Assembly: GCA_041491005.1 (NCBI GenBank)
Contig: JBGPUE010000010.1
Coordinates: 178-64,177, forward strand
From: Candidatus Binataceae bacterium
GTDB lineage: Bacteria > Desulfobacterota > Binatia > Binatales > Binataceae
Length of the DNA: 64,000 bases
Reading direction: 5' to 3'
The position numbers were made by a program, and so were the translations under genes. Below the pieces are notes generated by a model. The model had not been told where the DNA came from. It searched no databases and was given only the letters and a program-made list of their open reading frames with translations. The number at the start of each line of letters is the position of its first letter. Positions within the stretch are counted from its first letter, which is position 1. Shown in pieces: positions 7,520 through 64,000 of this stretch.

Positions 7520-8330
7520 TGAATTGGAGTACATCCGCCAAGAATCGTGGCGCGGCGAGTTTCGCAAACATGCGCTGTTCGGCTTGAGCGCCCCCGGCCC
7601 TTCGGGCTGGTAGTAGAATGCCCACGATAGTCGCCCCAGTGCTGATGAGGTCGAGCGCCAGCCGCGCGCGACCACCTTGAGCAAAGCCAGATCTGGCCCC
7701 GGCGACGTGGGCGCCTGATTCCCGTTCAGGATGATGCGACTCACTCCGCCTCCGCAAGCGATTTCGAACGGAACTTCGAGTGGCGTGAGCTCCAACTGCT
7801 CAGGCGTTTTGGAATGAACTTCCATCGCTGAGTCATTCGTGCGACAAGGGTCGATGCTGATCCGAAGTCGCCCCTTCGCAACCACGACCTTCGGACAACA
7901 AGACGCAGTATCCGGTGGCGCTCGGACTCGTCGACAGACTTGAACCGCGCCATAGCGGCTCTCGCGCGCTCATCTTTGGACAAGGTCTTGAGCGTGGAGT
8001 CGATGACCAGCTGTTCCAGCTCGTGAGCTGCGACACGTGGCAGGCTACCGGCTTCTTCGGGCCGATGCTGAACGACTGCCTGACTTACATAGTAGCGATA
8101 GCGGCGGCCTCCCTTACTCGTATGCGGACCGATTCAGTTGTTCTTCTTAGCGCGCGCTCCCGCCTGATGCCCGTTTGCGCCACCTCGCTTCGTGATCCGC
8201 ATTGCAGCCGTTTGGACATCACCAGAACCCACAACGCAAGTAGTTCTTTCTTGCCAAGTCCGCTGACCAGATCTGTCGGCATTTTCGGCAACGAAGCCGA
8301 TCGCCGCCGATCAAGTCGACGCCGACGCCT
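7520..8330 (-). pseudogene. Degraded large serine recombinase (C-terminal half only, multiple frameshifts)
   Basis: There is no single long ORF. Three minus-strand frames together read recombinase-like pieces: RLQCGSRSEVAQTG; GGRRYRYYVSQAVVQHRPEEAGSLPRVAAHELEQLVIDSTLKTL (zinc-ribbon/YRYYV region, Cys positions lost); ERHRILRLVV; VVAKGRLRISID...PDLALLKVVARGW; LISTGATIVGI...AAPRFLADVL. There is an in-frame stop (AKKNN*) and at least three frame changes. The N-terminal catalytic resolvase domain is absent. Boundaries are approximate. Confidence 0.45.
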
Positions 8331-8577
8331 CTGAGGACAAACTCCGCACCCGCGCCGGAAAGCTTTGGAGTATCCGGACACATCGGCGCCTCCGATTCGC
8401 ACGATGCTTCACCGCCCTGCCACCACGACCTTCATCGTTATAAGACTTTAGAGATAATCTTAATAATTCATGAGACGTCATAGTGGGTCAAGACCATCGA
8501 GTCTCCCCGGTCGCCGCCAGAGCAACTAGCGCCCTGCCGGTCACCACATGGCGACGAGGTACGTCTCGTTCCCTCGA

Positions 8578-34110: not shown

Positions 34111-34644
34111 CTAGTCAGCCAACGTGACGGTGCTGGCCTGCGGACCCTTCTCGCCCTCTTCTTCGGCGAAGCGGACATGACTGCCGACTTCGAGACGCTC
34201 GAAGCCGGGCGCCAGCACGCTGTTGCGATGGAAGTAGATCTCGCGACCGTCGGGCGTCTCGAGGAATCCGTAGCCGTCATCGCTGAAGAGCCTCGCGACG
34301 CGCGCCAAGGCCGGCCCTTCGTGGCTCTTAACCGCGCCGCGCACCTCGCGCACGTGGTCTTCAAGCCGCCGCCGGGCCGCGTCGAAGGCCTCGCGGATCG
34401 CCGTCATGAGTTCCTCGTCGGACTGATGGCTAATCGCGAGTTCGCCCCTCGGGACCTTCAGGTCGATTCGAATCTTGAACGGACCGCCCCGGCGGTGATG
34501 GCGCACCGGAGCTTCGACCGCGATGCGGCATCCGCTGATTTGGGGATCAAACTGTTCGAGCTTCGCAGCCCTGCGCCGAAGCTCAGCCTCTTCTGCCTCG
34601 GTCAACTGAAAGTTACGCGCTGTGATTTGAACCGGATATTCCAC
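34111..34644 (-). CDS. hpf: Ribosome hibernation factor (HPF/RaiA, S30AE fold) fused to a C-terminal cold-shock domain
   Basis: 177-aa ORF with a GTG start and GAGAGGA SD. The N-terminal ~105 aa are HPF/RaiA-like (VQITARNFQLTEAEEAELRRRAAKLEQF...FKIRIDLKVPRGELAI...EELMTAIREAFDAARRRLED). The C-terminal ~65 aa are CSD-like (ARLFSDDGYGFLETPDGREIYFHRNSVLAPGFERLEVGSHVRFAEEEGEKGPQASTV). Confidence 0.85.
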   Translation of the reverse strand: MEYPVQITARNFQLTEAEEAELRRRAAKLEQFDPQISGCRIAVEAPVRHHRRGGPFKIRIDLKVPRGELAISHQSDEELMTAIREAFDAARRRLEDHVREVRGAVKSHEGPALARVARLFSDDGYGFLETPDGREIYFHRNSVLAPGFERLEVGSHVRFAEEEGEKGPQASTVTLAD

Positions 34645-35359: not shown

Positions 35360-36796
35360 ATGGAACTCCAGAAGATCAGCGACTTTCTATGGGAAATCCC
35401 GCGCCATGGAGCGATGCGCGTGCCGGGGCGGATTTACGCCAGCCAGCAGATGATCGACGAACTCCGCGATGATCCAGCGCTGACGCAGGTCGCGAACGTC
35501 GCGTGCCTGCCCGGCATCGTCGGCTACTCGCTCGCGATGCCCGATATCCATTGGGGCTACGGATTTCCGATTGGCGGTGTTGCCGCGACCGATGCCGACG
35601 AAGGAGTGATTTCACCCGGCGGTGTCGGCTACGACATCAACTGCGGCGTGCGGCTGATCAAGACCAACCTCGAGTACACGGCCATCGCGGACAAAGTTGA
35701 TCGTCTGGCTGACGCGCTCTTCGATGCTGTGCCCGCGGGCGTTGGCTCCAGCGGCGCGATTCCCGGCCTCGCGACCGACGAGCTCAAACGTCTGCTCGGC
35801 TCCGGCGCCGTATGGGCGATGAACCACGGCTACGCTTCGATGGATGATCTCGAGCACACCGAAGAGAGCGGCCGGCTCGAGATGGCTGACCCATCGGCCG
35901 TCAGCGAGATGGCGCTCAGGCGCGGGCGCATCCAGCTCGGCACACTCGGCTCGGGCAATCACTTCCTCGAATGCGACCGTGTCGATCAGATCTACGACCC
36001 CGACATCGCGCGCGCCTTCGGCCTCGAGCTCGGCCAAGTGACTGTGATTATCCATTCAGGCTCGCGCGGACTGGGCCATCAGATCTGCGACGACCATTTG
36101 CGCGTGATCGGCAAGGCGATGAGCGGTTACGGGATCACTCTACCCGACCGCCAACTCGCCTCGGTGCCGATCCGCTCGCCGGAGGGTCGTGCCTACCTGG
36201 GCGCGATGGCGGCGGCGGCCAACTTCGCCTGGTGCAACCGGCAGATCATGATGCATCTGGCCGAGCGCGCCTTCATGGAGACGCTGGGCACAGGGCCGCG
36301 CGAAGTCGGCTTCTCGTTGCTGTACGACGTTTGCCATAACATCGCCAAGTTCGAGCGCCATGTGGTGGGCGGTGTCGAACGGCGCGTATGTGTGCATCGC
36401 AAAGGTGCAACGCGCGCCTTCGGCCCAGGCCATCCGGCGCTGCCCATCGCCTTTCGAATGATCGGGCAGCCAGTGCTGATCCCCGGTGACATGGGCCGCT
36501 ATTCGTATGTGCTGGTGGGACGCGAACGTGCGATGGCCGAGACCTTCGGTTCGACCTGTCACGGCGCTGGGCGCTTAATGAGCCGCGCCGAAGCCAAGCG
36601 CCGGGCGCGCGGCCGCGACCTACTGGCGGAATTGCGGGAGGCCGGCGTGACGATCAGGTACCAAGGCCGTTCGACAGTCGCGGAGGAAATGCCGGCCGCT
36701 TACAAGGATGTCGCAGACGTGGTCGGAGTGATGGAAGCGGCTGGCGTCAGCAAGCGAGTGGCGCGGCTCAAACCCTTCGCCGTAATAAAGGGTTGA
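35360..36796 (+). CDS. rtcB: RNA 3'-phosphate ligase RtcB
   Basis: 478-aa ORF with MPDIHWGYGFPIGGVAA, GVGYDINCGVR, GSGNHFLE, HSGSRGLGHQ, HRKGATRA and CHGAGR. Confidence 0.95.
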   Translation: MELQKISDFLWEIPRHGAMRVPGRIYASQQMIDELRDDPALTQVANVACLPGIVGYSLAMPDIHWGYGFPIGGVAATDADEGVISPGGVGYDINCGVRLIKTNLEYTAIADKVDRLADALFDAVPAGVGSSGAIPGLATDELKRLLGSGAVWAMNHGYASMDDLEHTEESGRLEMADPSAVSEMALRRGRIQLGTLGSGNHFLECDRVDQIYDPDIARAFGLELGQVTVIIHSGSRGLGHQICDDHLRVIGKAMSGYGITLPDRQLASVPIRSPEGRAYLGAMAAAANFAWCNRQIMMHLAERAFMETLGTGPREVGFSLLYDVCHNIAKFERHVVGGVERRVCVHRKGATRAFGPGHPALPIAFRMIGQPVLIPGDMGRYSYVLVGRERAMAETFGSTCHGAGRLMSRAEAKRRARGRDLLAELREAGVTIRYQGRSTVAEEMPAAYKDVADVVGVMEAAGVSKRVARLKPFAVIKG

Positions 36797-37132
36797 TGCC
36801 GCGTCCATCGGCCTAGCCACCGCTATTGACGTTATTGAGTCCTACGAGTGTGTCAGGCGATGCGCCGAGCGCTCTGGATGCCGTAAGCGTCAGCCGCGTC
36901 GCCGCAGTGCGCGATTACGCGACGCGAATCTGCCTGATTGGCGCTGCTGCATCTAACGGAGTCATTGGTTCCCGGCTGACCCTCCTTACGAAAGCACCCA
37001 TCTCCGACATACTCTGTCTTTCGACATGGCGTTCCAATTCATAAGCAGCGATGGTGCGATTCGCTGGACTTAGACGCGAGCATCGGCGCATCCAGTTGAT
37101 TGTGCGGGGCTGAATACCTCCGCCTGTTTGTG

Positions 37133-37148
37133 CGGCAGGAGAATTGCT
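37133..37148 (+). promoter_or_regulatory. Candidate sigma-54 promoter of usp
   Basis: CGGCAGGAGAATTGCT: GGCA and TTGCT at exact -24/-12 spacing, 26 nt upstream of the ATG at 37173. Confidence 0.5.
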
Positions 37149-37172
37149 CAGGGCTCATGCAATAAGTCGGCG

Positions 37173-37583
37173 ATGAGACTGCTGTTCCGAAAGATTCTTT
37201 GTCCTATCGATTTCGACCGCATCGCGATCGGAGCAATCCAACTCGCGCGCGAGCTAGCCGGGCGAGACGGCGGCCTCGTCTACCTCTTGTGCGTCGTCCC
37301 CAAAGACCGGACTCGTCTGAAAGCCGACTTGGAGCAGGTCGCACACAACAGCTTGCGCGGGATTGGCCGCAAATGGTTCGAGGGAAAAGCGCCGTACGAG
37401 ATCCTCGTTCGCGCCGGCCGGCCAGCGCGGGCGGTGCTTGATGCGGCGGAGGAACTCGGCGTTGACGTCGTGGTGATGGCAACTCATGGGCGAACAGGAA
37501 CCAGGCGTGTGCGTCTGGGCAGCGTTACCGAGGAAGTGGTTCGGCAGTCGACACGACCGGTGGTGACAATCAGGCCAACGTAG
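37173..37583 (+). CDS. Universal stress protein (UspA family)
   Basis: MRLLFRKILCPIDFD... and the C-terminal VVVMATHGRTGTRRVRLGSVTEEVVRQSTRPVVTIRP (G-2x-G-9x-GS/T ATP-binding type). The listed ORF start at 37128 is probably an extension. Confidence 0.85.
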   Translation: MRLLFRKILCPIDFDRIAIGAIQLARELAGRDGGLVYLLCVVPKDRTRLKADLEQVAHNSLRGIGRKWFEGKAPYEILVRAGRPARAVLDAAEELGVDVVVMATHGRTGTRRVRLGSVTEEVVRQSTRPVVTIRPT

Positions 37584-37637
37584 GGCTTGGCCTGCTTCGT
37601 CGATCTTAACGCGCCAAATCGAGGAGGACATCGCACA

Positions 37638-37838
37638 ATGAGCAGATACAATTGGGACGAAATCAACCGCACGGTTGAGGACTTAACCAAGCGTTACAAC
37701 ATCGCAGCGGTCGACAGCGTGACCGTCGGTGGAAATAGCGATGGAGTCGAGTTGACGCTCACCTCGCTGACCCCCGAGCAAGCCGAGCAGATCTTCAGGC
37801 TCATCGGGCTCAAGCAAGTCGAGCTCACAGTGCTCTGA
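37638..37838 (+). CDS. Small hypothetical protein (66 aa)
   Basis: ATG at 37638 preceded by GAGGAGG at a good distance. The sequence MSRYNWDEINRTVEDLTKRYNIAAVDSVTVGGNSDGVELTLTSLTPEQAEQIFRLIGLKQVELTVL has no family I recognise. The coding call rests on the RBS and its position within the operon. Confidence 0.5.
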   Translation: MSRYNWDEINRTVEDLTKRYNIAAVDSVTVGGNSDGVELTLTSLTPEQAEQIFRLIGLKQVELTVL

Positions 37839-38109
37839 TCGCGCATCAAGCCGCCTCACTCTCTCGTTGACGGTCCGCAATGGTAGTCGTCGCGAAGAGC
37901 ACCCTTGTTCCGACGATACGGCGGAGTCGCGTAGATGCGGCGAGGCTGCTTCGTCCCCCGCTTCGATGCCGGGCCTCACGATGTTTGTGTGGAGCGATCC
38001 GGAGCGCGGCTGGCGCCTTTGGAAACACATCAGAGGGGGCTGGCTTACCGTGGTTCACTGTGGCCTACCCGGAAGCTGAGAATTCAGTGCAACGAATCCA
38101 GGAGTTCGA

Positions 38110-38125
38110 TGGCAAGTTTCTTGCG
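38110..38125 (+). promoter_or_regulatory. Candidate sigma-54 promoter of hsp20
   Basis: TGGCAAGTTTCTTGCG: TGGCA and TTGC at exact -24/-12 spacing, 47 nt upstream of the hsp20 ATG, which has a strong AAGGAGGAG SD. Confidence 0.55.
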
Positions 38126-38170
38126 ACACAGCATCATCGAACACCAACAATTTGAAAGGAGGAGAGATCA

Positions 38171-38623
38171 ATGGGAGCATTAACCCCATGGAGGCCGTTT
38201 CGCGAAATGGAGCGATGGGCGCGCAATCTGGAGGGCCGCTTTCCGCGAGTCTTTGAGGACTGGCCGTTTCGGGCCGAGGAAGCGGAGTTTCTGCCGCCGA
38301 TTGAGAGCTTCGTCCAGAACGGCAATATCGTCGTGCGCGCCGACGTTCCCGGACTGGAGGCCAAGGACATCGAGGTCAGCGTTTTGGGCAACGTGCTGAC
38401 GATCAAAGGCGAGCGCAGGGATCAGAAGGAAGTCAAGGCCGAGGATTACATCCGGCGCGAGATCTCCTACGGCTCCTTCGAGCGCAGGCTTACGCTGCCC
38501 GATGGCGCCGATGCCGACAAGGTCAAGGCGCAGTTCAAAAACGGGACGGTCGAGATCACGATGCCGATGGCCAAGGGCGCCAGCCCCAAGAAAGTGCTGG
38601 TGGAGAGCGCAGAGAAGAAGTAG
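38171..38623 (+). CDS. Hsp20 / alpha-crystallin family small heat-shock protein
   Basis: 150-aa ORF with an alpha-crystallin domain: PPIESFVQNGNIVVRADVPGLEAKDIEVSVLGNVLTIKGER...ISYGSFERRLTLP...KAQFKNGTVEITMP. Confidence 0.9.
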   Translation: MGALTPWRPFREMERWARNLEGRFPRVFEDWPFRAEEAEFLPPIESFVQNGNIVVRADVPGLEAKDIEVSVLGNVLTIKGERRDQKEVKAEDYIRREISYGSFERRLTLPDGADADKVKAQFKNGTVEITMPMAKGASPKKVLVESAEKK

Positions 38624-38734
38624 TCAATCGGTCACAGGGGCAGGCGGCTACCACGCATCGCAGTTGTGCCTGCCTCCCCCGCGGCACTGGATTGTCGCAG
38701 CTCACGCGGCCTGACGCGAAAGGAGGAGATTCAG

Positions 38735-39337
38735 ATGCCAGCCGGGTCGACGATCTTGAATACCAATCACGAGCGGGTCGAGAAGCTCCGAACAGTGCTA
38801 GTCAGCCAACGCGACCATGCGTGGGCAAGGGTGCGGGAGTTCCGTCACGACCAGGAAGGCGACGCGATTCCGCCGCCGGCGGATGAGATGGACCTGGCGC
38901 GTTCGACCGCCGACCTCGAGACTCATGCGAGCCTGATCGAACAAGCGGAAGACCGGCTCGCACAAATCGACGACGCGCTGGCGCGGCTCAACGAAGGCCG
39001 CTATGGGATCTGCGCAAAATGCGTCGAGGAGATCGCGGTCGAGCGTCTCAACACGCTGCCCTTCGTGCTGTACTGCGTCGATTGCCAGCGCGAACTCAAC
39101 CGTGCGCGCCGCCGCGGCGAGGGCAGCCTGTCGCGCAGTTTCGGCCGCCGCTGGGAGACGCCGCTGGAGATGGATGAATCGCTGGAGAGGACCGACGCGA
39201 TGAGCCAGCCCGAGGAAGAAACCACCATACGCGAAGGCCGGCCTTTCGGCCGCGAAGAGGGCACTCCAGACCACGGCCGGATGCCGCGTACGGGCAGGGG
39301 CTTGGTTCGGCGCGGACGGCCCAAGCGCAGTGCGTAG
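38735..39337 (+). CDS. DksA/TraR-family C4 zinc-finger protein with a long basic C-terminal extension
   Basis: ATG at 38735 after AAGGAGGA. It has a coiled-coil region with DEMDLA (DxxDxA tip motif) and the zinc finger CAKC-x17-CVDC. About 80 further residues are rich in Arg/Glu/Gly. Confidence 0.8.
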   Translation: MPAGSTILNTNHERVEKLRTVLVSQRDHAWARVREFRHDQEGDAIPPPADEMDLARSTADLETHASLIEQAEDRLAQIDDALARLNEGRYGICAKCVEEIAVERLNTLPFVLYCVDCQRELNRARRRGEGSLSRSFGRRWETPLEMDESLERTDAMSQPEEETTIREGRPFGREEGTPDHGRMPRTGRGLVRRGRPKRSA

Positions 39338-39355
39338 TCGCGCAGGGGATACCGG

Positions 39356-39802
39356 ATGAGCAAACTATTCAACCGGATTCTCTGCCCGATCGCGTTCGAG
39401 CACGAGTCGTTGAGCGCCCTCGATCTGGCCATAGCGATCGCGCAGCAGAACGACGCGACCCTCGTGCTGCTCAACGTCGCGCCGCTCCCAATCGGAGCCG
39501 GCGAATTCGCGCCGACGCTCGATCCGTATCCCGCGATCGAGCAAGTGGCGCGCGAACGGCTTGAGCGACTGGCCCACGATCGGCTTGAAGGCAAGGTCGC
39601 ATACAACACCCATGTCGTCGCGGGCGATCCGGCGACGCAGATCCTCCGTGCGATCGAGGCCTTCGCCGCCGATCTGGTCGTGATGGGGACGCATGGGCGC
39701 AAGGGCGTCAAACATCTGCTGTTGGGGAGCGTCGCGGAGAAGGTCGTGCGCGAGTCACCGCGGCCTGTGCTGACCGTGCGTCCCGCAGAGGAAGCGCGCT
39801 GA
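39356..39802 (+). CDS. Universal stress protein (UspA family)
   Basis: 148-aa ORF with NRILCPIAFEHES... and LVVMGTHGRKGVKHLLLGSVAEKVVRESPRPVLTVRP. Confidence 0.85.
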   Translation: MSKLFNRILCPIAFEHESLSALDLAIAIAQQNDATLVLLNVAPLPIGAGEFAPTLDPYPAIEQVARERLERLAHDRLEGKVAYNTHVVAGDPATQILRAIEAFAADLVVMGTHGRKGVKHLLLGSVAEKVVRESPRPVLTVRPAEEAR

Positions 39803-39828
39803 CGGCTTGATACGCGGGAGGCAGACAC

Positions 39829-40479
39829 TTGCAGATAACTACCGACTCAGTTGAACTTGAGGGCGACCTCGAGATGCCGGCGGGCGTTGCGCGGGGAATC
39901 GTGATCTTCGCGCATGGGAGCGGAAGCAGCAGGCTCAGCCCGCGTAACATGTACGTGGCTGCCCGTTTGCGTGCGGCCGGAGTCGCCACATTGCTTTTCG
40001 ACCTGCTCACCGAGGCCGAGGCGCTGGATCGCCAAAACGTCTTCGATATGGAGCTGCTCGCCCGCCGCTTGCGGGCCGCTACCGCATCGGTGCGCCGCCA
40101 TCGGCTCGCCGGGATACTACCGGTCGGCTATTTCGGCGCCAGTACCGGCGCTGCTGCTGCACTAATCGCCGCAACGCGCGATCCAGCGATCACCGCGATC
40201 GTGTCGCGCGGTGGGCGACCCGACCTCGCGGGAGATGCGCTCGCTCAGGTGAAGGCGCCGACGCTGCTCATCGTCGGCGGCGAAGACCGCGAAGTGCTGG
40301 AGTTGAATCGGCGCGCGCTCAGGCGCCTGAGCTGCGAGAAAGAACTCCGGGTAGTTCCGGGTGCGACGCATCTGTTCGAGGAGCCGGGAACGCTCGACGA
40401 GGTAGTGAAGCTCGCCAGCGATTGGTTCGTGCGCCATCTGCACGCTCACCCGGGCGAAAAGGAGACCCATGTTCACTAA
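39829..40479 (+). CDS. Dienelactone-hydrolase-like alpha/beta hydrolase
   Basis: 216-aa ORF (TTG start as listed) with GIVIFAHGSGSSRLSPRNMYVAARLRAAGVATLLFDLLT and the nucleophile elbow FGASTGAAAAL. Its 3' end overlaps the next gene by 11 nt. Confidence 0.8.
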   Translation: MQITTDSVELEGDLEMPAGVARGIVIFAHGSGSSRLSPRNMYVAARLRAAGVATLLFDLLTEAEALDRQNVFDMELLARRLRAATASVRRHRLAGILPVGYFGASTGAAAALIAATRDPAITAIVSRGGRPDLAGDALAQVKAPTLLIVGGEDREVLELNRRALRRLSCEKELRVVPGATHLFEEPGTLDEVVKLASDWFVRHLHAHPGEKETHVH

Positions 40480-41173
40480 TCGCCAGGATGCGGGACGCCG
40501 GCTCGCCAAGGCTCTCGCCCGCTACAAGGATGACCATCCCGTCGTGCTGGCACTGCCGCGCGGTGGAGTTCCGGTCGGTTTCGAGGTAGCCAAGGCGCTG
40601 AGCGCGCCGCTGGACATTATCGTCGTGCGCAAGCTGGGCGCTCCCGGACAACACGAGCTGGGGATCGGCGCGGTCGTCGACGGCGACCATCCGCAGACCG
40701 TGCTCAATGAGGAACTGCTGCGAAGGATCGATGTGCCCAAGAGTTACCTCGAAGCAGAGATCCTGCGCGAGCTTGAGGAGATCCACCGCCGCCAGCAGAC
40801 CTACCGCAAGGGGCATCCACCGGTCGATCCAGCCGGGCGGATTGTAATCGTCGTCGATGATGGGATCGCGACTGGCGCCTCGATACGCGCGGCGTTGCGC
40901 GGTCTGCGAAAGCTCGCTCCCCGCCGTCTGGTGCTCGCCGTGCCGGTCGCACCCGCCGAGACGATCGAGTCGCTCAGAGCCGAGGTCGACGAGGTGGTTT
41001 GTCTTGCGACCCCGCCCGATTTCTTCGCTATCGGACAGTACTATGACGATTTCAGGCAGACTTCTGACGCGCAGGTAGTCGAGCTGCTCGACAAGGCGCG
41101 CAATCGTGTGCTGGCGCCCTCGCCGCCAGCGGCACGCTCTCCATCAGAAGAGAGCAAAGCGCCCTCCTGCTAG
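40469..41173 (+). CDS. Phosphoribosyltransferase-domain protein
   Basis: 234-aa ORF with MFTNRQDAGRRLAKAL...VVLALPRGGVPVG and the PRPP-binding loop IVIVVDDGIATGAS. Confidence 0.85.
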   Translation: MFTNRQDAGRRLAKALARYKDDHPVVLALPRGGVPVGFEVAKALSAPLDIIVVRKLGAPGQHELGIGAVVDGDHPQTVLNEELLRRIDVPKSYLEAEILRELEEIHRRQQTYRKGHPPVDPAGRIVIVVDDGIATGASIRAALRGLRKLAPRRLVLAVPVAPAETIESLRAEVDEVVCLATPPDFFAIGQYYDDFRQTSDAQVVELLDKARNRVLAPSPPAARSPSEESKAPSC

Positions 41174-41235
41174 TCGAGTTGCGTATCGTCATTATTGTAG
41201 TTTCAGGCCGTCGCTCTATCTGTGATCCTTAGCTT

Positions 41236-42183
41236 GTGCGCTGGGAATCGCGGGCAAAGGCAGCCCTGGCACTAGCCCGATGGACTGGCGGGCTGGTCTT
41301 GTGCGTTCTGTTACTCGTCGCCGAAGCCGCCGCTGACGAACTACCGCCGCTTGGCACGGCGCTGGTTGGGGGCGAGTTCTCCTACGTCGTGCGGCGTAGC
41401 GACTCGCTGCGAAGCATCGGCTCGCGCTATGGCGTGGAGCCCACGGCGCTGGCGGCGGTCAACGGGTTTGCCGCCTCGGCGCGCCTGCGCGTCGGACGGA
41501 CGCTTCGGATCGACAACCGCCACGTCGTGCCGCGCGCAGTCGCACGCGGAATATTGATCAACATTCCTCAGCGCTACCTGTTCCTGTTCCGCGGCGGCAA
41601 AGCGGATGTTGCCTGCCCGGTGGGGCTCGGCAGGCCATCGTGGCGCACTGTCACCGGGAAGTTTACCGTCATCGGCAAACGGACCGATCCGGTATGGACC
41701 GTGCCGGAATCGATACAACGCGAGATGAAGCGCGAGGGCAAAGAAGTCCGCAGCTGCGTGCCGCCGGGCCCCGGCAACCCGTTGGGCAGTTACGCCCTCG
41801 ACTTGAGCATCGCCAGCTACCTGATTCACGGTACGATCGCGCCGTCGAGCATCTACGCATTCCAGACCCACGGATGTATCAGGCTCCATCCCGACGACAT
41901 CGCGGCGCTGTTTGGCCGCGTTGAAGTCGGCGAGCCGGGCGAGATCATTTACCAGCCCGTGTTGCTCGCGCGCCTGGACAACGGGCGCATTTTTCTGGAG
42001 GTCAACCGCGATATCTACCGCAAGGCGGGCGACGCGATGTTGCTGGTAAGGGCGTGGGCGGAGACCTCCGGTCTTGACGGCGAAATTGATTGGCGGCAGG
42101 CAACGGCTGTCATCGAACGAAGGGAGGGAGTGGCGCGCGAGGTCGATCGAGCGGGCGGGCGGCTGTCTTTGTGGCGACATTGA
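41236..42183 (+). CDS. LysM-domain L,D-transpeptidase (YkuD family)
   Basis: 315-aa ORF (GTG start) with an N-terminal hydrophobic signal/anchor, a LysM domain (YVVRRSDSLRSIGSRYGVEPTALAAVNG) and the YkuD catalytic region LIHGTIAPSSIYAFQTHGCIRLHPDD. Confidence 0.85.
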   Translation: MRWESRAKAALALARWTGGLVLCVLLLVAEAAADELPPLGTALVGGEFSYVVRRSDSLRSIGSRYGVEPTALAAVNGFAASARLRVGRTLRIDNRHVVPRAVARGILINIPQRYLFLFRGGKADVACPVGLGRPSWRTVTGKFTVIGKRTDPVWTVPESIQREMKREGKEVRSCVPPGPGNPLGSYALDLSIASYLIHGTIAPSSIYAFQTHGCIRLHPDDIAALFGRVEVGEPGEIIYQPVLLARLDNGRIFLEVNRDIYRKAGDAMLLVRAWAETSGLDGEIDWRQATAVIERREGVAREVDRAGGRLSLWRH

Positions 42184-55830: not shown

Positions 55831-57162
55831 TCATTCGATTCCATAGCGTCTGCGTTTGCGCCAGAGCGTGGTGGCGTTGATTCCGAGCGTTGCGGCGGCC
55901 TCATCAAGTGTCGCGCTCTCGGCCAGCACTCGCGCGATATGTTCTCGTTCGACGTCTTCGAGACTCGCGGCAGGCGAGGTGGTGCCCGGCGCCTGCGGTA
56001 TATCGCGGAAGATCGAATCGGGCAGATCGTCGGGCCCGATGGTATCGCTGCGGCTTAGCACCGCGGCGCGCTCAAGAGCGTTACGCAACTCGCGCACGTT
56101 TCCCGGCCATTGATAGCGGGCCAGGGCCGCGCCGGCCTGCGGCGCGAGCCGGAGCTGCGGACGGTGGTTGCGAATCGCCGCCGCACGCAGCATCCACTCC
56201 GCCAGCGCCGGGATGTCCTCGCGGCGCTCGCACAGCGGCGGCACGCGGAGCGTAATCACGTTGAGCCGGTAGAACAGATCTTCGCGGAAGCGGCGCGCCT
56301 TGACCTCGTCTTCCAGATCGCGATTGGACGCGGCGATGATTCGCGCGTCGACCCGGATCGTGCGTTCTCCGCCCACGCGTTCGAAGCTCTGTTCCTGGAC
56401 GAAGCGTAGAAATTTGGTCTGCAGTGCGGCCGAGAGGTCGGCGATCTCGTCGAGAAATACCGTGCCGCCGTCGGCCGCCTCCAGGCGGCCGGGCTTGTCC
56501 TTGATGGCGCCGGTGAATGAACCGCGCATATGGCCGAAGAGCTCGCTTTCGAGCAGCTGCTCCGAGAGCGTCGTGCAGTTGACCACGACGAACGGGCGCT
56601 CGCATCGCGGACTCCATCTGTGAATCTGGCGGGCGAGGACGTTCTTGCCGGTGCCGCTCTCGCCGCTGAGCAGGATCGTCGCCTCGCTGCGCGCAGCCTG
56701 CCGCGCGGTTTCCAGCATGCGAACCATTGCGGCGCTGCGCGATTCCAGCATCGGCATCTCGTCGATAGTCTCGCGTAGCACCTGGTTCTCCGCCTGCAGG
56801 CTGTGCATCTGCAGCGCGCGATCGACCACATGGCGTATCTGGTCGAGCGAGAAAGGCTTGGCAATATAGTCGGAGGCGCCGGCCTTCATCGCGGCCACTG
56901 CGTTCTCGACGGTCGCGTAAGCCGTCATCAGGATCACCGGCGTGTAGGGATGCAGCCGCTTCGCCTCGTTGAGCAGCTCGAGTCCGTTCATCTCCGCCAT
57001 CCGGAAGTCGGTCAAAACCAGATCCAGCGGTCCTGCGGCGAGCGTCTGTATCGCCGCGACGCCGCTGGCGGCTTCGCGCACCTCGTGTCCGAGCGACTGG
57101 AAGAACGCCGCGAGGCTGCGGCGAATGTTCTTCTCGTCGTCGACGATGAGCAGTCGCGCCAT
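55831..57162 (-). CDS. Sigma-54-dependent response regulator (NtrC family)
   Basis: Met at 57162 (MARLLIVDDEKNIRR). It has a receiver domain (LVLTDFRMAEMNG), an AAA+ sigma-54 interaction domain (GESGTGKN, GSFTGA variant of GAFTGA) and a C-terminal HTH (ATLGINATTLWRKRRRYGI). An ATGA overlap joins it to the kinase stop. The listed 551-aa ORF has a spurious 108-codon extension. Confidence 0.9.
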   Translation of the reverse strand: MARLLIVDDEKNIRRSLAAFFQSLGHEVREAASGVAAIQTLAAGPLDLVLTDFRMAEMNGLELLNEAKRLHPYTPVILMTAYATVENAVAAMKAGASDYIAKPFSLDQIRHVVDRALQMHSLQAENQVLRETIDEMPMLESRSAAMVRMLETARQAARSEATILLSGESGTGKNVLARQIHRWSPRCERPFVVVNCTTLSEQLLESELFGHMRGSFTGAIKDKPGRLEAADGGTVFLDEIADLSAALQTKFLRFVQEQSFERVGGERTIRVDARIIAASNRDLEDEVKARRFREDLFYRLNVITLRVPPLCERREDIPALAEWMLRAAAIRNHRPQLRLAPQAGAALARYQWPGNVRELRNALERAAVLSRSDTIGPDDLPDSIFRDIPQAPGTTSPAASLEDVEREHIARVLAESATLDEAAATLGINATTLWRKRRRYGIE

Positions 57163-58949
57163 CAGGCCTCCGTCATCGCCGGCAATTCGACTACGAAGCG
57201 GCTGCCGCGATCGCCGTTGCTTTCGACGAAGATCCGGCCGCCGTGTGCCTCGACGATGTCCCTTACGATTGCGAGTCCCAGTCCTGCCGAACCGGCTCCA
57301 CCGCCGTTGGCGGCGTATTGAGCGAAGCGCTCGAAGATGTAGTCGCGAATCTCCGGCGCAATCCCGGGCCCCGAGTCCGCGACTTCGAGTATCACCGTAT
57401 GATTGCGCGGCCGCGCAACGATCTCGATTTTTCCGCCGCTGGGCGTATAGCGCAGCGCATTGCCGATCAGATTGGAGACCATCCACGACAGCTTCACAGG
57501 ATCTCCGTTGAGCTGCGGCACAGGCTCGATGCGCCGCTCAAGCACGACTTGCTTCTCGCGCGCCTGCAGGGCGAAGCGTTCGCTCACCTCCTCCGCGAGG
57601 CGGCCGATGTCGAGCGGCCGGCGCTGCACCGCGATCGCGGCTGCTTCGCCGCGGGCGAGGCTCAGCAGGTTGTCGCTAAGCTGCTTCATCCGCGCGCATT
57701 CCTCAAGGATAGCGCCCAACAACGCCCGCTGTCTTGGCTCCAGGCCCTCATGCTCGCGGCCGAGCAGCTCGGCAGAAAGCGCGAGCGAGGTGAGCGGCGT
57801 GCGGAGCTCATGCGAGAGCGTCGCGACCAGGTTCGTGCGTGCGCGATCCTGATCGCGCAGGTAGGTAACATCCTGCATGATGAGCAGCGTACCCAGCGCG
57901 CCGCCCTCGGGATGGCGCAGCGGCACCGGCTTCAGCACGTAAGAGTGTTCGCGGCCGCGCACGTGGAGTTCCACCTCGATGCGCTGGGCGCCGGAAGCGG
58001 ACTTGCGCGACGTCCTGAGCGCGTCCCGGATGCGCAGGTAGTGCGGATGGTTGCTGCTCAGATCATCGAAGATGCTGCCGAGCGCGTCGGCCGCATCGAT
58101 GCCCAGAATGATCGCCGCGATCTCGTTGATGTGTGCGACGACACCTCCCGAGTCAATCAGCACGACGCCGTCCTCGAGGCTCTCGATGATCGCCTCGGTC
58201 TTGCTCTTCTCATAGACCAGCCGCTCGACGTTGAGCTTCTCATACTGTTCCAGCCGCTCGGCCATCTCGTTGAACTCGCGCGCCACGATATCGAGTTCGG
58301 TGAGTCGCTGCGGGCCGAGCCGCAAATGCGTGTCGCGGCGGCTGATTCCGCGCAGCCGCTCGGCAAGTTCCGTCAGCGGCCTCGACAGTGTCCACGACAG
58401 CCCCCACGACAGTGCCACGCCGGTGAAAATGAGCACCAGCAATCCGGCTGCGAACTCGTAGGTCAGGCGCATGCCAAGCCGCATCGCGCGGCTATCGGCA
58501 CGGAACATCGCCGCCCGGTTCATCTGGATCAGATCGTCGAGCAACCCATGAAGCCGGTCATACCCTGCGTCGCGCTCCGCCTGGGGCTGCCCAGCGGCGA
58601 TCTCGCGAAATAACTCGAGAGCATTCGACTCGACGCTGTGTGCCAGCTCCGGCTCACCCACTTCCGTATGGATATGATTCTCGACGTCAATCCAGTGCAT
58701 AAAGGCAGCGCTCGAGGAGGGCAGCGCCGCGCGCCCTTGGCCCGCACGATCGGCAAGTTGCAACCGCCTGAGCTCTGAGTGCATGTGCTGAGCGGCGTCG
58801 ATGCTGACGTAGTTGCGGTACAGTGTCTCGCGAATCGCACCGCCGAGCCGGTACAAGTGCGGCAGGGCGTATCCGCCAAGAATCAAAACCACCGCCAGCA
58901 TCAGCAACGTACCGTTGCGAATCCGGCCGCGGAGCGATGGCGTCTTCAT
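57162..58949 (-). CDS. Sensor histidine kinase (TM-sensor-TM, HAMP, PAS, HisKA, HATPase)
   Basis: Met at 58949 (MKTPSLRGRIRNGTLLMLAVVLILGGY), with a second TM LLVLIFTGVALSWGLSW followed by a HAMP-like segment. H-box LSHELRTPLTSL; ATPase boxes GNALRYT, DSGPGI and GLGLAIV. An ATGA overlap joins it to the kdpD-N stop. Confidence 0.9.
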   Translation of the reverse strand: MKTPSLRGRIRNGTLLMLAVVLILGGYALPHLYRLGGAIRETLYRNYVSIDAAQHMHSELRRLQLADRAGQGRAALPSSSAAFMHWIDVENHIHTEVGEPELAHSVESNALELFREIAAGQPQAERDAGYDRLHGLLDDLIQMNRAAMFRADSRAMRLGMRLTYEFAAGLLVLIFTGVALSWGLSWTLSRPLTELAERLRGISRRDTHLRLGPQRLTELDIVAREFNEMAERLEQYEKLNVERLVYEKSKTEAIIESLEDGVVLIDSGGVVAHINEIAAIILGIDAADALGSIFDDLSSNHPHYLRIRDALRTSRKSASGAQRIEVELHVRGREHSYVLKPVPLRHPEGGALGTLLIMQDVTYLRDQDRARTNLVATLSHELRTPLTSLALSAELLGREHEGLEPRQRALLGAILEECARMKQLSDNLLSLARGEAAAIAVQRRPLDIGRLAEEVSERFALQAREKQVVLERRIEPVPQLNGDPVKLSWMVSNLIGNALRYTPSGGKIEIVARPRNHTVILEVADSGPGIAPEIRDYIFERFAQYAANGGGAGSAGLGLAIVRDIVEAHGGRIFVESNGDRGSRFVVELPAMTEA

Positions 58950-60163
58950 CGCGCGTTCTCCTGCTCGGAGTCGCCCACAATCTCGACGTCGACACCACGC
59001 GCCTGCGCGAGTATGCGCATGGTCACATCGAGGTGAAGCCACCGCCGCCAGATCGGCTGATGAGTACGCCCGAGGATGATTTTCGTGATGCCCTTTTCGC
59101 GGGCAAAGTCAAGCATCGTCCTGACGATGTCATCGCCCTTGAGCCAGACTGATTCCGCGCCCAGATCGCCAGCCAGGTTGATGTTGTCGAGCAGCGCCAC
59201 GAAGTCGCTGGTGCGCACCTTGTGCACCGATTCGGACGGCGTTTCCACGTGGATGGCATACCACTCGGCGTTGAGCCGCCCCGCGATACGCGAGGCCTTG
59301 CGCAACAGCTTGTCACCGTCGGCCGGATTGGAGGAGAGCCCGACCATGATCCGCTCGGTGATTTGGAGCCGGCGGCCGCCTTCGCGCTTGAGCGCTTCCT
59401 GCCCTTCGCGCTGGCGGCTGAGCCCGCGCGCAACCTCACGAAGAGCCATCTCGCGCAACGAGGCAAGATTGCTCGGCTTGAAGAAGTTTCGCAGCGCCTG
59501 CTCGATCTGCGCGGCAGGATAGATCTTGCCTTCTCGCAGCCGCTCACGGAGCGCCTCGACCGTCACGTCGACGTTTACGACCTGATCCGCACGCGCAAGG
59601 AAGGCGTCGGGCACGGTCTCGCGCACCTCGATACCCGTCACCCGTTTCATCAGCGGGTTGAGGCTCTCGACGTGCTGGATGTTCATCGCCGAGATGACGT
59701 TGATGCCTGCGGCAACCAGATCCTCGACGTCCTGGTAGCGCTTTTCGTGTTTGGAGCCGGGTACGTTGGTATGCGCCAGCTCGTCGACGATCGCGACCTC
59801 CGGTTTGCGCGCGAGGATGGCGTCGACATCCATCTCCTGCAACGTCACGCCCCGGTGCGCAATCGTGCGGCGCGGGACGACCTCCAATCCCGCGATTTTC
59901 TCGGCAGTTTCGGCGCGCCCATGAGTCTCGACCACCCCGATTACAGCGTCGACGCCTTTGGCGCGCAGCTGATGCGCCTCTTCGAGCATCTCGTACGTCT
60001 TGCCGACACCCGCTGCAGCGCCGACGTAGATCTTGAGGCGGCCCTTGAACGCCTGCGGAACGAGATCGAGAAACGACTCGGGCTCGGGGCGCACATCGTC
60101 AGGGGGCCGGGCAGAGCCACGGTCCGCTTCACCCTTCGGCGACTGCGTCATTCGCCAAGTCAT
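58946..60163 (-). CDS. kdpD: Stand-alone KdpD N-terminal sensor domain + Usp-like domain (no transmitter)
   Basis: 405-aa ORF with LKIYVGAAAGVGKTYEMLEEAHQLRAKGVDAVIGVVETHGRAET (KdpD N-domain with Walker A), then a Usp-like region (ERIMVGLSSNPADGDKLLRKASRIAGRLNAEWYAIHVE). The ORF ends before any membrane, GAF or kinase domain. Confidence 0.85.
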   Translation of the reverse strand: MTWRMTQSPKGEADRGSARPPDDVRPEPESFLDLVPQAFKGRLKIYVGAAAGVGKTYEMLEEAHQLRAKGVDAVIGVVETHGRAETAEKIAGLEVVPRRTIAHRGVTLQEMDVDAILARKPEVAIVDELAHTNVPGSKHEKRYQDVEDLVAAGINVISAMNIQHVESLNPLMKRVTGIEVRETVPDAFLARADQVVNVDVTVEALRERLREGKIYPAAQIEQALRNFFKPSNLASLREMALREVARGLSRQREGQEALKREGGRRLQITERIMVGLSSNPADGDKLLRKASRIAGRLNAEWYAIHVETPSESVHKVRTSDFVALLDNINLAGDLGAESVWLKGDDIVRTMLDFAREKGITKIILGRTHQPIWRRWLHLDVTMRILAQARGVDVEIVGDSEQENAR

Positions 60164-60238
60164 TTGCGCGGCTGCCCTGTCGATCCGGTCTCGGCAGGGA
60201 TCCCTTCCTATTATCCATCTAAGGTCAGCTCGATAGTA

Positions 60239-60844
60239 TCATCTCTCGTTGCGAACTTGCCGAGTGCGGTCCGGGGACAATGCGTCGAGGGCGAGGTTCA
60301 GGCGCAAAACATTCACCCCGGGCTCGCCGAAGATTTCGGCCCATCGCCGACTTGTATTCACCCTGACTAGCCGGCGTACCGCGTCTTCGGCCAAGCCTCT
60401 GGTCTTTGCGACGCGGGCGACCTGGATATCCGCGGCGGCCGGGCTGATCTCGGGATCCAATCCACTACCCGACGCAGTGACCAGATCGATCGGTACCTGT
60501 GCCGGCCGCACGCCCTCGGTTTCGACCACCGCCTTGAGCCGCGTCTGGACGGCGTCGATCAGCGTCTTGCTGGTTGGGCCGAGGTTCGAGCCGCCCGAAC
60601 TCAATCCATCGTAGCCCTTCGCCCCAGCCGTTGAGGGCCGCCCGTGAAAGTTGCGCGCACTTGAGAAGTTCTGTCCGATAAGTGACGACCCGACCAGCTT
60701 GCCGTTCACATATACGAGGCTGCCATTGGCCTGTAGCGGGAAGAGCAACTGGGCCACCGCCCAGACTGCCAGCGGGTAGATGACGCCCGTTAGCAACGTC
60801 ATCACCACGGTAAGCCGGGTTGCGATCCACAGTGAACGCATCAT
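60239..60844 (-). CDS. kdpC: Potassium-transporting ATPase subunit C
   Basis: 201-aa ORF with an N-terminal TM, FHGRPS and SGGSNLGPTS...SGSGLDPEISPAAA, typical of KdpC. Confidence 0.9.
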   Translation of the reverse strand: MMRSLWIATRLTVVMTLLTGVIYPLAVWAVAQLLFPLQANGSLVYVNGKLVGSSLIGQNFSSARNFHGRPSTAGAKGYDGLSSGGSNLGPTSKTLIDAVQTRLKAVVETEGVRPAQVPIDLVTASGSGLDPEISPAAADIQVARVAKTRGLAEDAVRRLVRVNTSRRWAEIFGEPGVNVLRLNLALDALSPDRTRQVRNER

Positions 60845-60851
60845 CTGTACC

Positions 60852-62894
60852 TCAGGCCAGATGCAGAGCAGTAATCATCAGATCGATCGCCTTGATCCCG
60901 ATGAACGGAACTACCACTCCGCCGAATCCATAAATGAAGAGATTGCGCGTGAAGATCGCGGCAGCGCCCAATGGCCGATACCGCACGCCGCGCAGCGCAA
61001 GCGGGATTAGCGCGATGATAATCAGGGCATTGAAGATGACTGCAGAGAGGATCGCGCTTTGGGGCGTCGCGAGACGCATCACGTTGAGCGCCTGGAGCTC
61101 GGGATAGCCAACCACGAACATGGCCGGGATGATCGCGAAATACTTGGCGACATCGTTGGCGATCGAGAACGTGGTCAATGCGCCACGCGTCATCAGCAAC
61201 TGCTTGCCGATCTCGACCACCTCCATGATCTTGGTCGGATTCGAATCGAGATCGACCATGTTGCCGGCCTCGCGCGCGGCCTGAGTGCCGGCGTTCATTG
61301 CGATACCCACGTCGGCCTGCGCCAGCGCCGGCGCATCGTTGGTGCCGTCGCCGATCATCGCGACCAGCTTGCCTTGCGCCTGTTCCTCGCGGATCAATCT
61401 GAGCTTGGCTTCAGGAGTGGCCTCGGCCAGAAAGCCGCCGACTCCCGACTCGCGAGCGATTGCCGCCGCGGTTAGAGCGTTATCGCCGGTGATCATCACC
61501 GTTCGCATGCCCATCGCATGCAGCCGCTCGAAGCGTTCGCGGATGCCCTCCTTGATGACGTCCTTCAGATGGATGACGCCGAGCGCGCGCGGCCCATCGG
61601 CCACCACCAGCGGCGTGCCACCATCGCGCGCGATTCGCTCGACAGCCGCGGCGAGATCGGCTGGCACGGTACCACCCTGCTCGCGCACGAACGCGATGAC
61701 CTGATCGGCGGCGCCTTTGCGGATGCTGCGGTTTGCGATATTGACGCCGCTCATCCGCGTCTGAGCAGAGAATGGGATGAACTCGACACCGTCCTCGGAC
61801 AGTGGACGGCCGCGGAGATTGAAATCACGCTTGGCGAGCACCATGATCGACCGCCCCTCCGGTGTCTCATCAGCGAGCGAGGCGAACTGTGCGGCCTCTG
61901 CCAGCGCGGCGATCTCGACGCCCTCGACCGGAACGAACTCGTACGCCATCCGATTGCCCAGCGTGATCGTACCGGTCTTATCCAGCAACAGCGTATCGAC
62001 GTCACCCGCCGCCTCGACCGCCCGCCCGGACATCGCGAGCACGTTGTGCTGCACCAGCCGGTCCATGCCGGCAATTCCGATCGCGGACAGCAACCCGCCA
62101 ATGGTGGTCGGAATAAGACAGACCAGCAACGACACCAGCACTGGCAGCGAAAGAGCTACGCTTGCGTACCGTGCGAACGGATAGAGTGAGACAATCACCA
62201 GCATAAAGATGATAGTCAGTCCGGCAAGAAGGATTTCGAGTGCGATTTCGTTGGGTGTCTTCTGACGCCGTGCGCCTTCGACCAGGGCGATCATCCTGTC
62301 CAGGAAGGTTTCACCCGGGTTGGCAGTGATGCGGACCTTAATCCAGTCCGAGATCACGGTCGTGCCGCCGGTGACCGCACTGCGATCGCCGCCGCTCTCA
62401 CGAATCACGGGCGCCGATTCGCCGGTGATCGCGGCCTCGTTGACCGCGGCGACGCCTTCGATCACTTCGCCGTCGCCCGGGATCACCTCGCCTGCCTCGA
62501 CCAGTACTACGTCGCCACGCCTGAGCGAGGTCGCAGAGACCAATGTGGTCGCGCTGGTTTCGGTCACGAGTTTGGCCTGGGTCTCGATGCGGGTCTTGCG
62601 CAGATTGTCGGCCTGCGCCTTGCCGCGGCCCTCGGCCATCGCTTCTGCGAAATTGGCGAACAGCACTGTGAACCAAAGCCATAGCGTGATTTGCAGTTCG
62701 AAGACCGCCAGCGCGTGGCGTCCGGCTGCGAAATCGCGGATCAGGATCATCGCGGTCATGAGGCTGGTGACTTCGACCACGAACATCACCGGATTGCGAA
62801 TCATCAGGCGCGGATCGAGTTTGTACAACGCATCCAGGGCCGCACGCGTAACGATCGCGCGATCCCATACAGCAATCTGCTTTTTCGATGCCAT
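60852..62894 (-). CDS. kdpB: Potassium-transporting P-type ATPase subunit B
   Basis: 680-aa ORF with [18 protein letters not shown] and [16 protein letters not shown]. Confidence 0.95.
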
Positions 62895-62900
62895 GACTTC

Positions 62901-64000
62901 CTAGAAAAGCCTGCCGGTCATCATTGCGAGCTGTTCAACAATCGGGCCGAGCGCGAGTGCCGGAAAGAAGGTCAGCGCGCCCACGATCACGACAACGGAA
63001 ACCAGCAGTACCACGAAGGTCGCACCGTTGGTGGGAAAAGTCCCGGCGCTCGGCGCCGCGATTTTCTTGCCGGCCAGCGAACCCGCGATCGCCAGCGCGG
63101 GAATCGCCATCATGAAGCGGCCGGAGAGCATCGTGATTCCGAGGGTCACGTTGTAGAAGGTCGTGTTGGCGTTGAGCCCCGCGAACGCCGACCCGTTATT
63201 TGCCACTGCCGATGAGAATGCATAGAGAATTTCCGAAAAGCCATGCGGCCCCATATTGGCGCGGCTCGCAAGCCCCGCCTCGGTGACGCTTGCGGCGGCT
63301 GCGGGCAGCAGGATAAGCGCGGGGAAGATCAGCACGTAGAGCATCACCAGCTTCATCTCGCGCGCCTGAATCTTCTTACCCAGGTATTCTGGCGTGCGGC
63401 CCACCATCAGCCCTGCGATGAAGACCGCGAGCACCGCCATCACGAGCATCCCGTACAAGCCCGATCCCACGCCGCCAAAAACCACTTCGCCCAGATGCAG
63501 GTTCACCAGCGCCATCAGCCCGCCCAATGGCGTGAAGCTGTCATGCATCGAGTTAACCGAGCCGTTGGAGGCCGCGGTCGTGGCCGTCTCCCAAATCCCG
63601 GAGCTGACGATGCCGAAGCGGACTTCCTTGCCCTCCATGTTGCCACCGCTTTGACCGCCGGTGGCTGCCTGATTGATTCCCATGCTCGCGAACTGCGGGT
63701 TGCCATGCTGCTCCGACCAGACCGCGGGCACGAGCGTCATCACATAGAGCACGGCCATCGCGGCAAACAACGCCCATCCTTGCCGCATGTCGCCGGCCAT
63801 CTTGCCGAACGTCAAAGTGAGCGCTCCGCCGAGCGCCAGGATTGCCAGCATCTCGATCAGATTTGTCAGCCTGGTCGGATTCTCGTACGGATGCGCCGAG
63901 TTGGCGTTGAAGAAGCCGCCGCCGTTGGTGCCGAGCTGTTTGATTGCGATTTGCGACGCGACGGGGCCCTGCGGGATGGTCTGCGCAGCGCCTTCGAGCG
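62901..64000 (-). CDS. kdpA: Potassium-transporting ATPase subunit A (5' end outside the window)
   Basis: The frame stays open to the window edge. The translation upstream of the listed Met reads ..[33 protein letters not shown].., the conserved KdpA selectivity-filter-like region. The stop is 6 nt before the kdpB start. Confidence 0.9.

Follow-up and report, generated by a model that had tools for sequence, protein, structure and literature searches.

The bacterial factors DksA, TraR, Gre and Gfh are regarded as working through RNA polymerase alone, with their specificity arising from promoter kinetics and not from recognition of DNA by the factor itself. In Escherichia coli DksA the coiled coil enters the secondary channel of the polymerase, where the tip residues D74 and A76 act at the active site and the bridge helix, and substitutions at these positions (D6 and A8 in TraR) abolish function while binding is retained (bioRxiv 10.1101/188680). 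The C-terminal helix of E. coli DksA reaches the β lobe/i4 domain, which is one of the pincers of the main DNA channel (bioRxiv 10.1101/188680). A gene for a protein of this type is located at positions 38735..39337 of the forward strand of a 64,000-nucleotide stretch from Candidatus Binataceae bacterium (assembly GCA_041491005.1, contig JBGPUE010000010.1, positions 178 to 64,177), which as a whole is referred to as the window. What is new in this gene and its relatives is a conserved module of acidic linker and AT-hook on a DksA-type core, which is diversified in Binatia. A literature search for DksA together with AT-hooks, with Binatota, or with tails, disorder or DNA binding found no description of such an architecture or of a DNA-anchored member of the DksA family. 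Our reading, which we hold with slightly better than even confidence, is that the product may be a secondary-channel factor with a conserved acidic linker and a terminal DNA-gripping basic peptide by which it would be tethered to DNA.

The same modular layout is known from CarD of Myxococcus xanthus, in which a folded RNA-polymerase-binding domain is combined with an acidic segment and RGRP AT hooks, the latter parts being intrinsically unfolded (PMC4374960). In other myxobacteria the place of the CarD hooks is taken by a tail resembling histone H1 (PMC4374960 and its reference 5), an exchange which is mirrored by the RGRP and K/R-rich tails of the Binatia family. CarD, however, has four hooks instead of one, and its CarD_CdnL_TRCF domain binds the β subunit, whereas the core of the window protein is built for the secondary channel. 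As the polymerase-binding domains are unrelated, this likeness is an analogy and not a homology. SutA of Pseudomonas aeruginosa, a small RNA-polymerase-binding growth-arrest regulator, resembles the window protein in having disordered acidic tails, which lie near β1/lobe (bioRxiv 10.1101/423384), but it shares no sequence or fold kinship with it and has neither a zinc finger nor a coiled coil nor an AT hook.

The DksA-type core

The gene and the parts of its product are listed here, with the basis of each assignment in brackets (pLDDT, predicted local distance difference test).

38735..39337, + strand: DksA-like gene, 200 amino acids plus stop codon (open reading frame with ATG start, Pfam PF01258 match)
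38721..38726, + strand: Shine-Dalgarno sequence AGGAGG, 8 nt 5′ of the ATG (direct sequence reading)
38747..38866, + strand: predicted coiled-coil helix 1, residues 5-44 (AlphaFold model, block pLDDT 79-94)
38882..38899, + strand: coiled-coil tip motif D50-E-M-D53-L-A55 (AlphaFold, loop 45-50 and start of helix 51-87; alignment)
38885..38995, + strand: predicted coiled-coil helix 2, residues 51-87 (AlphaFold, Foldseek)
39011..39085, + strand: C4 zinc finger C93-x2-C96-x17-C114-x2-C117, including the invariant R104 (E. coli R125) (Pfam, alignment)
39077..39115, + strand: predicted C-terminal helix, residues 115-127, counterpart of the C-terminal helix of DksA (AlphaFold)
39140..39187, + strand: conserved Trp motif F136-GRRW140-ETPLEMDESLE151, family consensus PF..RW..PEEM.ES.E (W140 in 84/84)
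39155..39274, + strand: acidic linker, residues 141-180, net charge -9, predicted disordered (charge count, AlphaFold)
39275..39334, + strand: basic C-terminal peptide, residues 181-200, net charge +8 (charge count)
39308-39328, + strand: AT-hook-like core R192-R-G-R-P-K-R198 (sequence reading)

The identical 200-residue product was called by the JGI and the NCBI gene callers on eight public contigs, and it is named 'DnaK suppressor protein' or 'RNA polymerase-binding transcription factor DksA' in these sources. As automatic annotation already gives DksA-type names, membership in the superfamily as such is not new. The Pfam model zf-dskA_traR (PF01258) matches residues 88-121 with 35.7 bits, above its gathering cut-off of 24.9, and the significant matches of a sequence search against the PDB were all of the DksA type (2kq9, 3.5e-10; DksA2 4ijj, 9e-9; Chlamydia DksA 6ptg, 5.7e-5; E. 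coli DksA 1tjl, 5e-4). An AlphaFold model built with 19 homologues, which is a prediction and not a solved structure, gives the order helix 5-44, loop 45-50, helix 51-87, finger and helix 115-127, with high confidence in the core. When this model was searched with Foldseek, the top matches were DksA structures throughout, including the RNA-polymerase-bound chains 5vsw_M and 7khi_M; DksA2 (4ijj) was matched with a template-modelling (TM) score of 0.81 and a root mean square deviation of 1.5 Å, and E. coli DksA (1tjl) with a TM score of 0.71.

In the alignment D50, D53 and A55 fall on D71, D74 and A76 of E. coli DksA and on D3, D6 and A8 of TraR, and R104 falls on R125. As the segment between the tip motif and the first cysteine is gapless against E. 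coli DksA (D71 to C114), D50, D53 and A55 can be equated with D71, D74 and A76, and the predicted helices and loop, together with the placement by Foldseek on DksA structures, locate the acidic motif at the tip of the coiled coil. An earlier note, made from the letters of the window alone, had read the finger as CAKC-x17-CVDC and had put the motif DEMDLA (50-55) 43 residues ahead of the first cysteine, as in E. coli DksA. Both readings were confirmed, since the pairs C93-AK-C96 and C114-VD-C117 are separated by 17 residues and the distance from D50 to C93 is 43. The note had further preferred a genuine secondary-channel regulator of RNA polymerase over a generic TraR-like zinc finger, a preference which it would have given up had the acidic motif lain away from the tip. 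As far as tip and fold are concerned this preference is supported, as AlphaFold, Foldseek and the alignment agree on the tip, the predicted fold superposes on DksA, and D50, D53, A55 and R104 are invariant in all 84 family members compared. On the basis of the Pfam match and the model, the 200-residue protein is a member of the DksA/TraR superfamily with a DksA fold, and its core (residues 1-127), as predicted, is a short DksA with a two-helix coiled coil, a DxxDxA tip, a C4 finger and a C-terminal helix.

With E. coli DksA (1tjl, 5vsw, 7khi) the window protein has the coiled coil, the C4 finger, the C-terminal helix, the 43-residue spacing between tip and cysteine and the R125 equivalent in common; it differs by an identity of ~21% and by ~70 extra residues past the C-terminal helix. 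P. aeruginosa DksA2 (4ijj) as the best structural match and the short DksA-like protein 2kq9 of A. tumefaciens as the best sequence match are similar in core size, and both are without a tail. The tip reads DEADLA in DksA2 and DEMDLA in the window protein, and DksA2 is described as having no zinc-binding cysteines (PMC9213440), whereas all four are present here. TraR of the F plasmid shares the residues equivalent to D50, D53 and A55 as well as the zinc finger and the C-terminal helix, but it consists of 73 residues with a single N-terminal helix and no tail, while the window protein has a full coiled coil. TraR acts without guanosine tetraphosphate (ppGpp) (bioRxiv 10.1101/188680), which may hold for the window protein too.

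The tail and its conservation in Binatia

After C117 the protein continues for 83 residues. The earlier note had described an approximately 80-residue, basic and disordered tail, and the length and the predicted disorder stand (pLDDT below 50 over residues 131-140, 147-169 and 171-190); the tail is, however, not uniformly basic but bipartite, with a net charge of -9 in residues 141-180 and of +8 in residues 181-200, ending in VRRGRPKRSA. The sequence R-G-R-P with Arg/Lys flanks is the core of the AT-hook, a peptide that binds DNA in the minor groove, and the terminus of the window protein has both this core and the flanks. As the third codon positions in the reading frame of the tail have a GC content (GC3) of 0.79 and its motifs are kept in more than 80 homologues (38-58% identity), the tail is, judged from its sequence, real coding sequence. 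An antisense open reading frame of 275 amino acids (39001-39828, - strand), likewise with a GC3 of 0.79, overlaps the tail and the downstream gene for a universal stress protein (Usp). The idea that the tail is a non-coding or antisense artefact was ruled out by the conservation of the plus-strand motifs in the family and by the strong Pfam match of the plus-strand Usp; as the plus-strand genes have family support, it is almost certainly the antisense frame that is an artefact of high GC content.

A scan of species-representative genomes yielded 546 related stretches, of which the best 80 were taken for the analysis of loci; almost all of these 80 are labelled as Binatia or as 'uncultured delta proteobacterium' metagenome-assembled genomes (MAGs). 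They provided 83 family members, with some of the counts given here covering 81 or 84 sequences. Judged from these sequences, the protein belongs to a DksA/TraR-type subfamily which has so far been found only in Binatia. Nineteen database homologues of 159-207 amino acids share the motifs GEG..PF..RW..PEEM.ES.E, PEE, FGPEE and a terminal RRGRPRK. The motif D[DE]xDxA lies exactly 43 residues ahead of the first cysteine in all 83 members, and the median length of the tail is 82 amino acids. Within the tail W140 is invariant (84/84), and P143, E145 and E151 are mostly kept. The last 20 residues have a net charge of at least +5 in 66 of 81 members (median +9). RGRP occurs within the last 30 residues of 57 of the 83 members, compared with a single case among 1044 other products of open reading frames from the same loci. 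Five further members have a degenerate RGRP end, and ~18 of the 83 have a K/R-rich end without RGRP, some of these being rich in Lys, Ala and Pro like histone H1 (e.g., L030 and L014; one such end reads ...GGKPKAKAKKPRARKAKKGK). Complete genes without any basic end were found in two loci only, L035 (acidic end) and L079 (truncated).

Averaged over alignment columns, conservation among the Binatus-clade proteins (34 distinct sequences) reaches 0.966 in the core and 0.945 in the terminal 32 residues, against 0.86 in the linker. The window protein has four strain-level variants, which vary at two core positions and are free of substitutions in the tail. The tail, although predicted to be disordered, is by these comparisons under clear constraint. 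A profile of the tail alone, searched against 1.84 billion representative proteins, gave 25 matches, all of which are DksA-like proteins or fragments that keep the finger sequence PFAxYCVDCQ. By this search the tail is a module under constraint and confined to this DksA-like family. The possibility that it is a portable module which also occurs on other proteins was ruled out by the same 25 of 25 matches.

The charge of the linker allows a different view, in which the effector would be the linker itself: by mimicking nucleic acid it would enter the main DNA channel or guard it, and the basic end would only balance or mask the linker. Comparable acidic elements are region 1.1 of sigma factors, the acidic C-terminal region of the Bacillus subtilis delta subunit and the tails of SutA. 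The linker is indeed the steadiest charge feature of the family (net charge of -5 or lower in 79 of 81 members, median -12), it begins right after the C-terminal helix, whose E. coli counterpart is directed towards the β lobe next to the DNA channel, and it is kept in L035 without a basic end. SutA, moreover, binds β1 and acts as a growth-arrest regulator via its disordered acidic tails (bioRxiv 10.1101/423384). Yet conservation in the Binatus clade is higher for the basic end than for the linker, with the values given above, and this end carries a specific RGRP motif and not a generic charge. We regard an effector role of the linker as rather unlikely; it is nevertheless the main rival of a DNA-tethering tail, and the two are mutually compatible.

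The family comprises at least seven subfamilies of tailed DksA-like proteins, and several MAGs contain 2-3 paralogues, typically one with an RGRP tail and one with a K/R-rich tail adjoining a Usp gene. In some Binatia loci two DksA-like paralogues with different types of tail lie within 16 kb of each other, as in L015 (7998-8591, +; 10443-11294, -), L019 (7998-8594, +; 3254-4012, -) and L034 (7998-8573, +; 2394-3020, -). Such close paralogues with different tails suggest that a gene was duplicated locally and that the tails diverged afterwards. The orthologues of the Binatus clade (L037-L084, gene at ~7920-8606) may have a Lys/Arg/Thr-rich N-terminal extension, MKTRTKTRPTKSSKRQKTKM..., if an upstream start codon is used; the gene callers differ here, giving 202 or 225 amino acids.

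The proposed DNA tether and the points against it

In the proposed mechanism the coiled coil would insert into RNA polymerase's secondary channel, by homology to DksA and TraR, and D53 and A55 would come to lie next to the active site and the bridge helix, where they could alter the stability of initiation complexes. From the C-terminal helix a disordered module would extend, composed of the Trp motif, an acidic linker of ~40-45 residues and the terminal basic peptide. This peptide, an AT-hook (RGRP) in most members and K/R-rich in others, may contact the minor groove of AT-rich tracts. As the C-terminal helix of E. coli DksA points at the β lobe beside the main DNA channel, we infer that the terminal peptide contacts DNA: the tail would leave the end of the helix beside this channel, and the flexible acidic arm would let the hook reach promoter DNA. 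The hook might thereby tether the factor at particular promoter complexes or guide it to them, and the acidic linker could serve as a spacer, mask the hook within the same molecule, or do both. The binding to RNA polymerase, the binding of the tail to DNA and the physiological role are thus proposed from fold, motifs, conservation and distribution.

A DNA-binding peptide on a DksA-type core would, if true, be a second route to promoter specificity. The CarD design, i.e., a polymerase-binding domain with an acidic segment and an AT-hook or H1-like tail, would then also be known from a second, independent case, which would suggest that tethered regulators of RNA polymerase arose convergently in soil bacteria of high GC content. 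More tentative, and in our estimate somewhat short of an even chance, is the further idea that this is the first secondary-channel factor with a DNA anchor of its own, the effect of which would be promoter-selective or dependent on chromatin context, and that the paralogues with their several tails form a toolkit of targeted factors, one of which is wired to a growth-arrest cluster. The Binatia are uncultured soil bacteria with an unstudied transcription machinery, and the Usp and Hsp20 genes around the gene tie it to transcription in growth arrest, which is poorly understood.

Several observations weigh against the tether. On the side of the core, none of the equivalog cut-offs of NCBIfam is reached, neither for DksA_like (NF033459; 65.8 vs 105 bits), dksA (TIGR02420; 52.4 vs 115.5) and NF008045 (24.7 vs 289) nor for yteA (TIGR02890; 65.1 vs 134.4) and TraR (TIGR02419; 30.8 vs 59.7). 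The Bacillus proteins YteA, YocK and YlyA of TIGR02890 are, like the window protein, of the DksA/TraR type and longer than DksA, and the score of their hidden Markov model is near the DksA_like score; by its score, however, the window protein is no member of that family, and its tail motifs are confined to the Binatia family. Some of the Bacillus proteins are linked to general stress or to sporulation. E. coli DksA contacts ppGpp at site 2 via R91, K94, L95, K98, R129 and K139 (bioRxiv 10.1101/188680). In the alignment these correspond to Q70, D73, R74, Q77, L108 and Q118, respectively, so the basic residues are mostly missing (Q70, D73, Q77, L108 and Q118). Of the 84 family members, 79 have Arg at position 70, all have Gln at position 118, and either Ile or Leu stands at position 108. 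As most ppGpp-contacting residues are missing in the window protein, an E. coli-style synergy with ppGpp is not to be assumed. The β lobe insertion that is touched by the C-terminal helix in E. coli is, in addition, lineage-specific.

The missed equivalog cut-offs would fit a protein that is not a secondary-channel factor at all but a PF01258 zinc-finger protein in another role, such as regulation as a small DNA-binding protein or the sensing of zinc or redox state in the stress cluster. Many PF01258 proteins are uncharacterised, and the ~33 residues at the N-terminus of E. coli DksA (1-32, part of the globular domain) are unmatched in the alignment, the helix beginning at residue 5. On the other hand, the model gives the long coiled coil with high confidence and places it on DksA chains bound to RNA polymerase, and it is difficult to account for the strict invariance of D50, D53, A55 and R104 down to 38% identity unless the DksA/TraR mechanism applies. 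Another role of this kind therefore appears very improbable.

On the side of the tail, the Pfam model AT_hook (PF02178, cut-off 17.4 bits), which is only 13 positions long, reports nothing at the terminus of the window protein, and on the termini of relatives it gives 17.3, 15.6 and 7.0 bits. About a quarter of the members are without RGRP, and the complete member L035 is acidic at its end. A single hook is also few in comparison with the three or four of CarD and the HMGA proteins. For every family member the binding to DNA and to the polymerase is, moreover, a prediction from sequence. Runs of at least six A or T bases are absent from the island at 36790-41190; in the whole window they are rarer than expected by composition (59 observed, 127 expected). 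Local targets of the hook are therefore not indicated by the sequence, and AT-rich tracts near the gene were dropped as candidates for such targets, although their absence from 36790-41190 says nothing about where targets may lie.

The missing AT_hook match, together with a pLDDT below 50 over most of residues 131-190, would also be expected if the tail were a disordered element of regulation or stability without any role in nucleic-acid binding, i.e., a degron, a condensate-promoting or polyphosphate- or RNA-binding segment, or a docking motif around the Trp. The invariant W140 with its acidic PEEM-type motif does resemble a short linear docking motif. Against this, RGRP with Arg/Lys flanks is enriched ~700-fold over background at the end of the tail, and the K/R-rich and partly histone H1-like replacements in paralogues point to DNA binding and not to a degron. 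We hold such an element to be quite unlikely as the explanation of the tail.

Gene neighbourhood and other features of the window

The genes next to the DksA-like gene are the following.

37173..37583, + strand: universal stress protein (Pfam Usp, E = 5e-24)
37638-37838, + strand: open reading frame of 66 amino acids, located between Usp and Hsp20 and having an AGGAGG of its own (no Pfam match; called on all copies of the contig)
38171..38623, + strand: Hsp20/alpha-crystallin, stop codon 111 nt 5′ of the start of the DksA-like gene (Pfam HSP20, E = 1.4e-23)
39356..39802, + strand: universal stress protein, 18 nt 3′ of the DksA-like gene (Pfam Usp, E = 2.9e-32)
39829..41173, + strand: alpha/beta (dienelactone-type, DLH) hydrolase and phosphoribosyltransferase, genes overlapping (Pfam, gene calls)

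Judged by the spacing, the DksA-like gene is probably co-transcribed with the downstream Usp gene. Its position among genes for Usp, Hsp20, a second Usp, a hydrolase and a phosphoribosyltransferase suggests that it is probably expressed with a programme of stress response or growth arrest. Usp, Hsp20 and a phosphoribosyltransferase/DLH protein are hallmarks of the mycobacterial DosR dormancy regulon, to which the locus bears a resemblance only. The earlier note had taken the gene for a paralogue specific to a stress island. The stress neighbours are indeed present, and the 2-3 paralogues in several MAGs agree with this idea, but homologues of Usp, Hsp20, the phosphoribosyltransferase or the DLH protein occur within 4 kb in only ~16 of the 80 related loci, mostly in the nearest relatives of the window protein, which rules out a stress-gene neighbourhood as a rule for the whole family. 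In the Binatus clade (37 members) the gene instead adjoins genes for a fusion of Na/H exchanger and Usp, for CBS and CYTH proteins, and for two-component or hemerythrin proteins. No second DksA/TraR gene was found in the window by a phmmer search of all six-frame open reading frames, and no homologue of the 66-residue open reading frame was seen in the related loci.

A scan for promoters and terminators in 36800-41400 gave no sites above chance, and a sigma-54-type element 5′ of the gene was discarded on inspection by eye for its wrong spacing. The 11-nt motif TGWTTGTGYGG occurs three times on the + strand (37097-37107, 37125-37135 and 37982-37992), compared with 0.03 occurrences expected in shuffled sequences. 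Two of the copies lie 28 nt apart just 5′ of the first Usp gene, and the third lies ~190 nt 5′ of Hsp20. The motif may serve the stress cluster as an operator or promoter element. It was absent from the loci of other species and present only in copies of the same contig.

Farther upstream the window contains genes for archease and RtcB and a gene of the hibernation-factor type. The 177-residue product encoded at 34111-34644 (- strand) combines a domain of ribosome hibernation factors, Ribosomal_S30AE (residues 5-99), with a C-terminal cold-shock domain, CSD (120-175), an unusual fusion, which adjoins archease and RtcB. An open reading frame of 2954 amino acids at 8578-17442 (- strand) with GH94 supersandwich, catalytic and glucoamylase-like domains looks like a cyclic beta-1,2-glucan synthase. 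At ~57160-63850 (- strand) open reading frames of 316, 680, 201 and 405/626 amino acids resemble an operon for the potassium pump kdpABC with a KdpD-like sensor, a likeness of sizes and N-termini only.

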